Below, in pieces: positions 27,001-30,000 of a stretch of 64,000 bases of DNA. The position numbers were made by a program. The stretch lies in assembly GCF_045037415.1 (NCBI RefSeq), contig NZ_CP173438.1; one strand, given 5' to 3'. The first letter of the stretch is position 1. Every line of letters begins with the position of its first letter. This stretch comes from Escherichia coli (lineage in GTDB: Bacteria; Pseudomonadota; Gammaproteobacteria; Enterobacterales; Enterobacteriaceae).

Positions 27001-30000
27001 TCAAATCCGCATTCAGCACTGCTCAAATAGATCAATGGGTTGCACCTGTCGCGCTATACCCCGACTCTCTGCTTTCACAAGTGTTAATGGCATCAACCTA
27101 TCCGGCAAACGTTGCTCAAGCAGTGCAATGGTCGCACGATAATCCACTTAAACAAGGCGATGCTGCTATTCAGGCGGTATCTGACCAGCCCTGGGACGCC
27201 AGCGTCAAATCACTGGTGGCCTTTCCACAGTTGATGGCATTGATGGGCGAAAACCCGCAATGGGTGCAAAACCTGGGCGATGCTTTTCTGGCGCAGCCGC
27301 AGGACGTGATGGACTCGGTACAGCGATTGCGGCAACTGGCGCAACAAACCGGCTCGCTGAAGTCATCAACTGAACAAAAGATCATCACGACAACGAAAAA
27401 AGTCGTACCGGTAAATCAGCCCGCCAACGCCCCTGCCACACAATCAAATACCGTTTCTACGTCCAGCCCCGTCGTCGCAGAACCTGCACCGACCGTAATA
27501 ACCATTGAGCCAGCCAATCCGGATGTGGTTTATATTCCGAACTACAACCCAAACGTGGTTTACGGCAGTTGGGCCAATACCGCTTATCCACCAGTTTATC
27601 TGCCGCCGCCAGCCGGAGAACCGTTTGTTGACAGCTTTGTGCGCGGATTCGGCTATAGCATGGGCGTTGCTACCACATACGCACTATTCAGCAGCATCGA
27701 CTGGGACGACGACGATCATGACCATGACCATCATCATCATGACGATGATGATTATCATCACCACGATGGCGGTCATCGTGACGGTAATGACTGGCAACAC
27801 AACGGCGACAACATCAATATCGACGTCAACAATTTCAACCGTATCACCGGTGAGCATCTTACTGATAAGAATATGGCATGGCGGCACAATCCAAACTACC
27901 GTAATGGTGTGACCTATCATGATCAGGATATGGCAAAGCGGTTTCATCAAACCGATGTCAACGGCGGAATGAGCGCCACGCAGTTACCTGCTCTATCGCG
28001 CGACAGCCAGCGTCAGGCGGCAGCAAGTCAGTTTCAGCAACGAACACACGCCGCCCCCGTCATTACGCGAGATACCCAACGTCAGGCAGCGGCACAGCGG
28101 TTTAATGAAGCGGAACACTATGGCAATTATGACGACTTCCGCGAGTTCAGCCGCCACCAACCACTGACCCAGCAGCAAAAGGACGCCGCTCGCCAGCGTT
28201 ATCAGTCTGCCTCACCTGAGCAGCGCCAGGCGGCCCGTGAGAAAATGCAGACTAGCCCGCAGAATCAACAGCAAAGAGATGCAGCACGTCAGCGTATTCA
28301 GTCCGCGTCGCCTGAGCAGCGCCAGGTGTTTAAGGAAAAAGTACAGCAGCGCCCACTGAACCAAGAGCAACGTGATAACGCCCGCCAGCGTGTTCAATCG
28401 GCATCACCTGAACAACGTCCGTTTTTTCGGGAGAAAGTTCAGGAGAGCCGCCCGCAACGTCTAAACGACAGTAACCGTACTGCCAGGCTGAATAACGAGC
28501 AGCGGTCAGCAGTACGCGAACGTCTCTCTGAACGTGGGGCAAGAAGACTGGAAAGGTAAATTGCAGACGTAAAAAAAGCGGCGTGGTTAGCCGCTTTTTT
28601 AATTGCCGGATGTTCCGGCAAACGAAAAATTACTTCTTCTTCGCTTTCGGGTTCGGCAGGTCGGTAATGCTACCTTCGAACACTTCTGCCGCCAGGCCCA
28701 CAGACTCGTGCAGAGTCGGGTGCGCATGGATGGTCAGTGCGATGTCTTCAGCGTCACAACCCATTTCGATTGCCAAGCCGATTTCACCCAGCAACTCGCC
28801 GCCGTTAGTGCCGACAATCGCACCACCGATCACACGGTGAGATTCTTTGTCGAAAATCAGCTTGGTCATACCGTCTGCGCAGTCGGAAGCGATAGCACGA
28901 CCAGAAGCAGCCCACGGGAAGGTGGCGGTTTCGTAGCTGATGCCTTTCTCTTTCGCTTCTTTCTCAGTCAGACCTACCCATGCAACTTCTGGTTCGGTAT
29001 AGGCGATGGACGGGATAACTTTCGGATCGAAGTAATGTTTTTTACCGGCGATAACTTCAGCGGCAACGTGACCTTCGTGAACACCTTTGTGTGCCAGCAT
29101 TGGCTGACCGACGATATCGCCGATAGCAAAGATGTGCGGTACGTTGGTACGCAGCTGTTTGTCAACGCGGATGAAACCACGGTCGTCAACTTCCACGCCA
29201 GCTTTGCCTGCGTCGAGGTTTTTACCGTTCGGCACACGACCAATCGCTACCAGCACGGCGTCGTAACGCTGCGGTTCAGCGGGTGCTTTTTTGCCTTCCA
29301 TCGTCACATAAATGCCGTCTTCTTTCGCTTCAACGGCGGTAACTTTGGTTTCCAGCATCAGGTTGAATTTCTTGCTGATACGCTTGGTAAAGACTTTAAC
29401 GATGTCTTTATCAGCTGCCGGGATGACCTGGTCGAACATTTCAACCACGTCAATCTGTGAACCCAGCGCGTGGTATACGGTGCCCATTTCCAGACCGATG
29501 ATACCGCCACCCATTACCAGCAGGCGTTCTGGTACTTCTTTCAGTTCCAGCGCGTCAGTGGAGTCCCAGATACGCGGATCTTCATGCGGAATAAACGGCA
29601 GTTGAATCGGGCGAGAACCCGCTGCAATGATCGCGTTGTCGAAGTTGATCACGGTTTTACCGTTCTCACCTTCAACTTCCAGGGTGTTAGCCCCGGTGAA
29701 TTTACCCAGACCGTTGACCACTTTGACTTTGCGGCCTTTCGCCATACCAGCCAGACCACCGGTCAGCTGATTGATCACTTTCTCTTTCCAGGTACGAATC
29801 TTGTCGATATCGGTTTTCGGTTCGCCGAAGACGATACCGTGTTCAGCCAGCGCTTTGGCTTCTTCGATAACTTTTGCTACGTGCAGCAGTGCTTTAGAAG
29901 GGATACAGCCGACGTTCAGGCAAACACCGCCAAGGGTGTTGTAACGTTCTACGATTACGGTTTCCAGACCTAAATCAGCGCAACGGAAGGCAGCGGAGTA

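Follow-up and report, generated by a model that had tools for sequence, protein, structure and literature searches.

What do a dense run of histidine and aspartate and a set of tandem peptide repeats contribute to YacH, a DUF3300 family protein of Escherichia coli, and why do these two segments differ in length from strain to strain? We address this question with the yacH gene carried on a 64,000-nucleotide (nt) stretch of E. coli DNA (assembly GCF_045037415.1, contig NZ_CP173438.1), which is referred to here as the window. An original prediction made on this DNA had placed a His/Asp-rich tract and three repeats of roughly 30 amino acids (aa) within positions 27700 to 28520, which do span both segments. 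It had also proposed that both are prone to length variation and had called the function of the protein unknown. The observation is confirmed as real and correctly read, and it can be explained at the level of alleles and of DNA mechanism. On function, the literature reports CpxR regulation and a protamine phenotype (PMC9600279).

A His/Asp tract and three 32-residue units in YacH

The features that carry the argument are as follows.

26796 to 28559, + strand: yacH coding sequence, a DUF3300 protein of 587 aa plus stop codon (open reading frame [ORF] list, Pfam PF11737, identical annotated record)
27705 to 27809, + strand: His/Asp tract (aa 304 to 338), with 14 Asp, 11 His, and a net charge of -13 (sequence, repeat finding, AlphaFold2)
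27997 to 28103, + strand: pair of 23-aa repeats (RDSQRQAAASQF / RDTQRQAAAQRF), each opening a helix (direct repeat, AlphaFold2)
28131 to 28226, + strand: 32-aa unit 1, type A (aa 446 to 477), 92% nt identity to K-12 unit 1
28227 to 28322, + strand: 32-aa unit 2, type B (aa 478 to 509), nt identity of 83% to K-12 unit 2 and 86% to unit 3; helices at aa 474 to 485 and 488 to 503
28323 to 28418, + strand: 32-aa unit 3, type C (aa 510 to 541), 98% nt identity to K-12 unit 4
28419 to 28556, + strand: degenerate fourth unit and basic tail (aa 542 to 587), in which the 32-aa register is kept (PFFREKVQESRPQRLNDSNRTARLNNEQRSAV)

The ORF matches the PF11737 DUF3300 profile over aa 75 to 335 (E = 8e-78; 261.5 bits, compared with a cut-off of 25), and the alignment covers profile positions 2 to 227 of 227, with the gathering score exceeded. 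A DUF3300 gene annotated in E. coli SK1144 matches it at 100% identity. Its K-12 equivalent is yacH (b0117), which is 1,854 bp and encodes 617 aa, the length that the original prediction had given for K-12 and had set against the 587 aa found here. Searches of YacH with the NCBIfam and PADLOC profiles gave zero matches, as did an Rfam search of positions 26400 to 28800.

The string quoted for the tract, DDDDHDHDHHHHDDDDYHHHDGGHRDGNDWQHNGD, is located at aa 304 to 338 (nt 27705 to 27809). Its first 21 codons are all GAY or CAY except for one TAT, and they include CATGAC CATGAC CAT at positions 27717 to 27731. The best 25-aa window of the tract contains 21 His and Asp residues, compared with 9 for the runner-up among all open frames of at least 100 aa in the window; chance does not account for the tract. 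In the remainder of the mature protein's N-terminal part (aa 26 to 303, 278 residues), His occurs once. The tract DNA is internally repetitive, with periods of 6, 15, and 21 nt detected by Tandem Repeats Finder, plus a 21-nt family. Two ORFs overlap the tract in other frames, one of 88 aa (27684 to 27950, - strand) and one of 135 aa (27505 to 27912, + strand); their translations are runs of Met/Ile/Val/Thr, and they resemble side effects of the codon repeat more than genes.

In an AlphaFold2 model built from 102 sequences (mean predicted local distance difference test [pLDDT] score, 73; predicted template modeling score, 0.61), the tract is an unstructured loop (pLDDT, 45 to 58) between two strands at aa 299 to 301 and 340 to 343, and these flanking strands have pLDDT values of 72 to 94. 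Most of 101 homologues have only a 3- to 5-residue turn at this position, typically WG[HR]G[DN], between Trp303 and the INVNRYN strand. Because most homologues hold so few residues there, we conclude that the tract is a lineage-specific enlargement of a turn: the tight connection between two beta strands has become a disordered, strongly acidic loop of ~35 residues, encoded by the GAY/CAY codon run. The segment is still His/Asp-rich in Scandinavium (56% identical overall), in Rahnella (44%), in another relative (46%), and in Dryocola, and it is likewise His/Asp-rich in an E. coli allele that is only 73% identical in protein sequence.

The three tandem repeats are also present, and their period is exactly 32 aa rather than roughly 30 (aa 446 to 541, nt 28131 to 28418): QSASPEQR recurs at aa 470, 502, and 534 (nt 28203, 28299, and 28395). 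The self-diagonal BLOSUM62 score at an offset of 32 is 196, compared with a maximum of 74 in 500 shuffles. The DNA identity of the three units to one another is just 60 to 66%, and for this reason they are missed by DNA repeat finders, including Tandem Repeats Finder; the four units of K-12 are detected as a 96-nt DNA repeat family. The 23-aa pair upstream lies at 27997 to 28034 and 28066 to 28103, with 74% DNA identity and 69-nt spacing, and corresponds to helices at aa 402 to 418 and 425 to 441. Within the repeat region, AlphaFold2 places helices at aa 459 to 470, 474 to 485, 488 to 503, 506 to 517, and 523 to 532 (pLDDT, 70 to 89). Each 32-aa unit is thus modelled as a helix-turn-helix, with helices that open at Ser/Thr-Pro caps (SPEQ and (N/S/R)P(Q/L)NQ, such as NPQNQ).

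The C-terminal region as a whole is basic. Residues 401 to 587 contain 33 Arg and 35 Gln and have a net charge of +15. In a set of 102 DUF3300 sequences, the net charge of the region beyond Trp303 is +18 at the median and positive in 95% of cases, compared with a median of -7 for the N-terminal domain, and other DUF3300 lineages have different Arg/Gln/Glu/Ala-rich tandem repeats in this tail. The basic repeated tail is a DUF3300 family trait that is found in nearly all of the proteins examined.

Length alleles of yacH and their origin

Gene length was surveyed in complete E. coli genomes by systematic sampling in two sets (40 plus 60 rows, taken in even steps down the match rankings), and the tracts and units were compared by protein and DNA alignment of 15 genomic yacH alleles. 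The gene lengths among the 100 sampled rows were as follows.

1,854 bp: 47 of 100 rows
1,758 bp: 27 of 100 rows, with 5 further B2-type rows, aligned only in part, whose length is probably 1,758 or 1,782 bp
1,764 bp (the window allele): 9 of 100 rows
1,662, 1,782, 1,806, 1,815, 1,848, 1,851, and 1,860 bp: rare

Alleles at least 99% identical to the window yacH occur in 546 of 5,416 matching genomes. Both segments vary, as the original prediction had expected: tract lengths of 20, 31 to 36, and 41 aa and unit numbers of 2 to 5 were encountered in E. coli, and no fewer than 12 different lengths of the intact gene were recorded. In a set of 120 close protein clusters, the tracts had 32 to 36 residues.

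Relative to K-12, the window allele has the unit order A-B-C in place of A-B-B'-C, which is a loss of 32 aa, and one extra His-Asp pair encoded by CATGAC, which is a gain of 2 aa. K-12 therefore carries two B units, which are 91% identical in DNA, where the window allele has unit 2 alone. Unit numbers encountered were 2 (553 aa), 3, 4, and 5 (648 aa). Among alleles with three units, those of the window, A21, and strain 1500 read A-B-C, and those of Nissle and IHE3034 read A-B-B' and lack the type C unit; this difference in composition shows that three-unit alleles arose at least twice, by different deletions. Tract indels include the +6-nt CATGAC copy of the window allele, a +24-nt duplication in Nissle, and a -39-nt deletion in ACN001 that runs between short repeats, as well as changes of -3 and -6 nt in two other strains and of +3 and +9 nt. 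Two in-frame duplications lie outside both segments, one of 16 aa (LAQPQDVMDSVQRLRQ) within the conserved alpha domain of F829 YacH and one of 4 aa (VEAP) in linker 1 of protein P0252.

Nearly all of these length changes are in frame, and the tract and unit variants are all multiples of 3 nt. Changes in tract length are produced by replication slippage or microhomology deletion, and changes in unit number are produced by unequal recombination between the 96-nt repeats. In-frame variable-number tandem repeats of bacterial envelope proteins likewise change by whole units by way of near-identical DNA repeats and give rise to coexisting alleles. YacH differs from them in that its range is small (2 to 5), its units are old and diverged (60 to 91% DNA identity), and it has no known antigenic or adhesive role.

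An internally repetitive tract could also make yacH a contingency locus, in which slippage in the tract toggles the gene by frameshift. There is a precedent in an isolate of Salmonella Typhimurium, in which the corresponding tract DNA has lost 8 bp and YacH is truncated as a result (PMC10048834). In E. coli, however, every tract variant encountered is a multiple of 3 nt (+6, +24, -39, -3, -6, +3, and +9), the repeat is codon based and is neither a homopolymer nor a dinucleotide run, and the sole frameshift that we found lies outside the tract, near codon 163. Together with an IS1 insertion and a truncation beside ipaH, that frameshift accounts for the disrupted yacH genes, which were seen in 3 of the 100 sampled rows. 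The contingency explanation is largely refuted, and we give it almost no weight.

Divergence and selection along the gene

Outside the two segments, yacH is divided into the following parts.

26895 to 27011, + strand: linker 1, hypervariable and rich in Pro/Thr/Ala/Val (aa 34 to 72); disordered, pLDDT ~46 to 55
27012 to 27365, + strand: conserved all-alpha DUF3300 domain (aa 73 to 190); helices between aa 75 and 184, pLDDT 95 to 98
27366 to 27491, + strand: linker 2, dimorphic and hypervariable (aa 191 to 232); defined by divergence from K-12 and by its two classes
27492 to 27704, + strand: beta core part 1, a Gly-rich hydrophobic segment and then a nearly invariant Trp303 at the end (AlphaFold2 strands)
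27810 to 27995, + strand: beta core part 2 (aa 339 to 400), NINIDVNNFNRI ... WRHNPNYRNGV.YHD; strands at aa 340 to 343 and 359 to 361, pLDDT 80 to 94

The nearly invariant columns of the family alignment are concentrated in the alpha domain. The modelled beta strands are seven in number (aa 194 to 200, 233 to 239, 248 to 250, 285 to 287, 299 to 301, 340 to 343, and 359 to 361), and the DUF3300 consensus in beta core part 2 is INVNRxN...WxHxPxHRxGVxYRD.

The window yacH is 89.6% identical to that of K-12. Most of the 44 window genes compared are 97 to 99% identical, and only yad fimbrial genes are lower than yacH; the LpdA protein encoded beside yacH is identical in all strains examined. Linker 1 has 84 to 87% nt identity to K-12 and occurs as several haplotypes. 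Divergence peaks in linker 2, where the 100-nt window from 27396 to 27495 is 72% identical to K-12, with a synonymous divergence (dS) of ~1.0 and a ratio of nonsynonymous to synonymous divergence (dN/dS) of ~0.2. Linker 2 exists as two discrete classes that differ at 13 to 19 of 41 residues, with no intermediates. There are also mosaic alleles: the window allele matches IHE3034 up to approximately aa 400 and then diverges (dS, 0.55 to 0.63), and C-terminal segments have been reshuffled between yacH classes. A third allele, in E. coli AST85 (locus L023, 3001 to 4860), encodes 619 aa with 73% protein identity to both the window and K-12 proteins; its units are 34 aa long, its linker 1 is longer, and the LpdA beside it is identical. 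This allele may have been imported from a different lineage of Escherichia.

The dN/dS values are 0.03 for the alpha domain, 0.05 to 0.06 for the beta core, 0 to 0.33 for the His/Asp tract, 0.12 to 0.19 for the repeats, and 0.66 to 0.74 for linker 1 in comparisons with K-12 and O157. These values show that YacH is under constraint, both of the variable segments included, and crude as they are, they do not favour positive selection in yacH. Length variants are filtered by purifying selection.

The pattern of divergence is compatible either with old imports by recombination into a linker under weak constraint or with balancing selection over the long term. Under balancing or diversifying selection, YacH would be the contact point of an outside agent (for example, a cationic peptide, phage, colicin, or contact-dependent toxin), and the dimorphic linkers and length variants would be maintained because they alter that interaction. 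The low identity of yacH to K-12, with only the yad genes lower still, is what such selection might produce, as are the two discrete classes of linker 2 and the mosaic alleles, and the better survival of a yacH deletion mutant in protamine (PMC9600279) points in the same direction. On the other hand, dN/dS is below 1 in every segment, we found no evidence that YacH is exposed on the surface, no receptor role has been reported for it, and old imports into a poorly constrained linker explain the divergence equally well. On balance, we consider balancing selection improbable. The same low standing applies to a more specific proposal, in which yacH is a long-term polymorphic envelope locus where the linker classes (dS, ~1 over 42 codons), the mosaic C termini, and the unit series are kept by selection because the protein, whose acidic loop faces the +15 Arg-rich tail, would govern how cationic peptides or some other external agent act or are taken up, in a manner that depends on the allele and is gated by pH or metal; this, too, is improbable.

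A simpler possibility is that the tract and the repeats are neutral low-complexity filler, that is, tolerated disordered spacers whose length drifts with slippery DNA. Many yacH length classes coexist, the tract is predicted to be disordered, the 13-residue deletion allele and the 2- to 5-unit alleles persist in nature, and a 3- to 5-residue loop suffices for most DUF3300 homologues. Yet filler would not be expected to keep its His/Asp-rich composition across Enterobacterales at 44 to 57% overall identity, nor to have dN/dS values well below 1 in both the tract and the repeats. In addition, a comparison of E. coli allele classes shows better conservation of the tract sequence than of the adjoining linkers, and the reading frame is rarely disrupted (3 of 100 sampled genomes). 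We therefore regard neutral filler as unlikely.

Predicted export and topology of YacH

The N terminus of YacH has the features of an exported protein.

26796 to 26870, + strand: probable Sec signal peptide, aa 1 to 25 (MKMTLPFKPHVLALICSAGLCAASA, then G) (sequence reading, AlphaFold2 helix at aa 9 to 22)

It includes a basic n-region with Lys2 and Lys8, a hydrophobic core at aa 11 to 23, and Ala-Ser-Ala preceding Gly26. DUF3300 and DUF2950 proteins are reported to carry signal peptides in a survey of root-nodule bacteria (PMC4653623). It is plausible, judging from the N-terminal sequence, that YacH is exported and periplasmic. No lipobox of the form [LVI][ASTVI][GAS]C is present in YacH, in which A-L-I precedes Cys16 and A-G-L precedes Cys21; the distant homologue P0010 does carry LVVGC.

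The Gly-rich segment of the beta core, taken together with the basic tail, was considered as a second membrane helix (aa ~278 to 302), which would leave the tract and the tail in the cytoplasm. This topology is rejected for now: hydropathy is low, and AlphaFold2 places beta strands there. The Kyte-Doolittle 17-residue mean of the segment is 0.96 in E. coli, compared with a family median of 1.65, and a simple sum of Hessa values is +6.9.

Relation of the repeats to known protein families

CpxP, Spy, and ZraP (LTXXQ family, PF07813) are periplasmic, Cpx-regulated helical hairpins; their (L)TPEQ-type cap, with a Gln/Arg/Glu-rich helix behind it, can be aligned with SPEQRQ of YacH. They differ from YacH in that each is a single hairpin domain of ~100 residues, whereas the 32-aa units are arranged in tandem at the end of a 587-aa protein. 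If the units were hairpins of this type, the tail could be a tandem periplasmic chaperone or stress-sensor module. In keeping with that idea, the unit profile aligns SPEQRQAAREKMQT with TPEQQAVLNEKHQQ of CpxP, which is its second LTXXQ motif, and also aligns with the first motif of Spy; BLASTP finds 9 of 15 identities across that stretch; yacH is Cpx regulated like cpxP and spy (PMC9600279); and the units are modelled as helical hairpins. However, in these alignments SPEQR is paired with TPEQQ of CpxP and TDAQK of Spy, with the Leu of the motif replaced by Ala in YacH, and the hhalign probabilities are only 3.7% and 1.5%, respectively, across 12 to 14 columns. The PF07813 LTXXQ and Metal_resist profiles have no match at an E value of up to 10 in three C-terminal constructs of YacH and the 5-unit allele, in a run in which the positive controls CpxP and Spy matched LTXXQ at 8e-22 and 2e-23. 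Membership of the YacH repeats in the LTXXQ family thus fails, leaving a motif-level alignment, and we think it very unlikely that the repeats are hairpins of the CpxP/Spy type. The nearest Pfam resemblance of the C-terminal repeats is instead to DUF3106 (PF11304), an uncharacterised repeat family (E = 0.003 to 0.04, profile positions 18 to 102), and here too the scores of 14.8, 18.6, and 17.8 bits are below the gathering cut-off of 24.3.

Regulation and genomic context

In the window ORF list, yacH lies between acnB (23844 to 26594, - strand) and lpdA (28630 to 30117, - strand). Expression of yacH is reported to be regulated by CpxR and to rise 3.9-fold under NlpE overproduction, and its transcription is lowered by protamine and cecropin A (PMC9600279); reduced expression of yacH is also reported for a rob mutant (PMC7537768). 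Upstream of yacH, at a distance of 118 bp from its start (region 26643 to 26678), is a perfect 13-bp palindrome, GGTGATAATCACC, which is kept in K-12 but is absent upstream of the AST85 and Scandinavium genes. It is adjoined, in the same region, by a CpxR-like GTAAA-N6-GTTAA with imperfect half-sites and 6-nt spacing. A Fur box at the palindrome was considered and rejected, as just 12 of 19 consensus positions match.

Downstream, yacH and lpdA are convergent and are separated by a 70-bp spacer (28560 to 28629) that contains the following feature.

28571 to 28600, no strand assigned: probable bidirectional intrinsic terminator common to yacH and lpdA (A7-GCGGC-GTGGTTA-GCCGC-T6)

This terminator was identified by direct reading of the spacer and is not among the results of a consensus terminator scan. 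In B2-type strains it is interrupted by a 171-bp insert resembling a repetitive extragenic palindrome, which makes the spacer 241 bp in IHE3034, Nissle, and A21.

L006, 2059 to 2299: 241-bp yacH-lpdA spacer
L003, 2083 to 2323: 241-bp yacH-lpdA spacer
L005, 2059 to 2299: 241-bp yacH-lpdA spacer

Pairing of DUF3300 with DUF2950 was called universal in the survey of root-nodule bacteria (PMC4653623), and we found a DUF2950 gene directly downstream of the DUF3300 gene in four of five non-E. coli loci (loci L017, 5690 to 6484; L013; L014; and L016). In one of these, the Scandinavium orthologue is linked to acnB, as yacH is, and is accompanied by a DUF2950 gene. E. coli yacH has the full DUF3300 core, and the acnB synteny in common with the Scandinavium orthologue, but lacks the usual downstream partner, with the convergent lpdA following after 70 bp. 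The Scandinavium DUF2950 gene has zero blastn matches in 5,426 E. coli genomes, a search that a very distant paralogue could escape.

Other features of the window

Two further regions differ strongly from K-12. Positions 35948 to 40731 (~4.8 kb, between pdhR and aroP) have no K-12 counterpart and include a 593-aa ORF (38595 to 40376, - strand) that combines Hcp, S-type pyocin, and colicin DNase domains. Several small ORFs (79 to 98 aa), probably immunity genes, are arrayed downstream of it on that strand. The yad fimbrial operon (approximately 1 to 10200) is highly divergent, with nt identities of 72% for yadC, 85% for yadN, 87% for yadK, and 88% for yadV.

What YacH may be

Among known systems, the tract resembles the His-rich loop of ZnuA (K-12, residues ~119 to 143), which is likewise disordered, rich in Asp and His, and inserted in a folded domain of a periplasmic protein. 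In ZnuA the loop serves as a flexible auxiliary site for zinc, and its length varies between lineages. The heptapeptide DDDDHDH is literally common to the ZnuA loop and the YacH tract, and the tract, as a disordered His/Asp-dominated loop within a folded, predicted exported domain, fits the same class of feature. The two proteins are not homologous, however: YacH has a DUF3300 core instead of a ZnuA/TroA fold, its tract is longer and denser than the ZnuA loop (21 rather than 15 His and Asp residues of 25), and the metal binding, Zur control, and transporter partner of ZnuA have no known counterpart for YacH. The likeness is thus best described as an analogy of composition and placement. By this analogy, and from its composition and its conservation in Enterobacterales, the tract is a plausible candidate for metal binding.

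Taking these results together, we favor a reading in which YacH is an exported, CpxR-regulated core protein with a lineage-specific metal-binding loop and a basic arm, both varying in length in frame, and to this reading as a whole we assign a probability of about 0.5. Its descriptive part is nearly certain; its functional part is well short of an even chance. The loop would most likely act by flexible binding of divalent cations (Zn, Ni, or Cu) and by pH titration, as in ZnuA. The tail of helical units would most likely form an extended basic arm or spacer in contact with anionic components of the envelope, and the number of units would tune the length or the valency of that arm.

Several points weigh against this reading. 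A literature search found no paper that ties YacH to metal binding or to regulation by metals, and there is no evident Zur or Fur box upstream of yacH. Approximately 3% of the sampled genomes carry an allele without 13 of the 33 tract residues, which indicates that a full-length tract is not essential. Export and cleavage are predictions from the N-terminal sequence, and the Gly-rich hydrophobic segment that precedes the tract is marginally membrane-like in many homologues; if it were membrane spanning, both the tract and the tail would be cytoplasmic. The helix-turn-helix units are taken from an AlphaFold2 model with pLDDT values of 70 to 89 that fall below 50 at the ends of the region, and no binding partner of the tail is known.

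The variation of YacH is real and fairly ordinary in kind, and it occurs within an unusually variable core gene. This variability is relevant to typing schemes and to annotation, as the differences in length are real alleles and not assembly errors. The DUF3300 family is very large, with more than 9,000 representative clusters (9,482 representative homologues at an E value of ≤0.001), and it has no characterised member and no relative of solved fold. For working out the function of this family, E. coli is the evident choice, and its natural yacH alleles are a ready allelic series for work with metals, cationic peptides, and Cpx stress.

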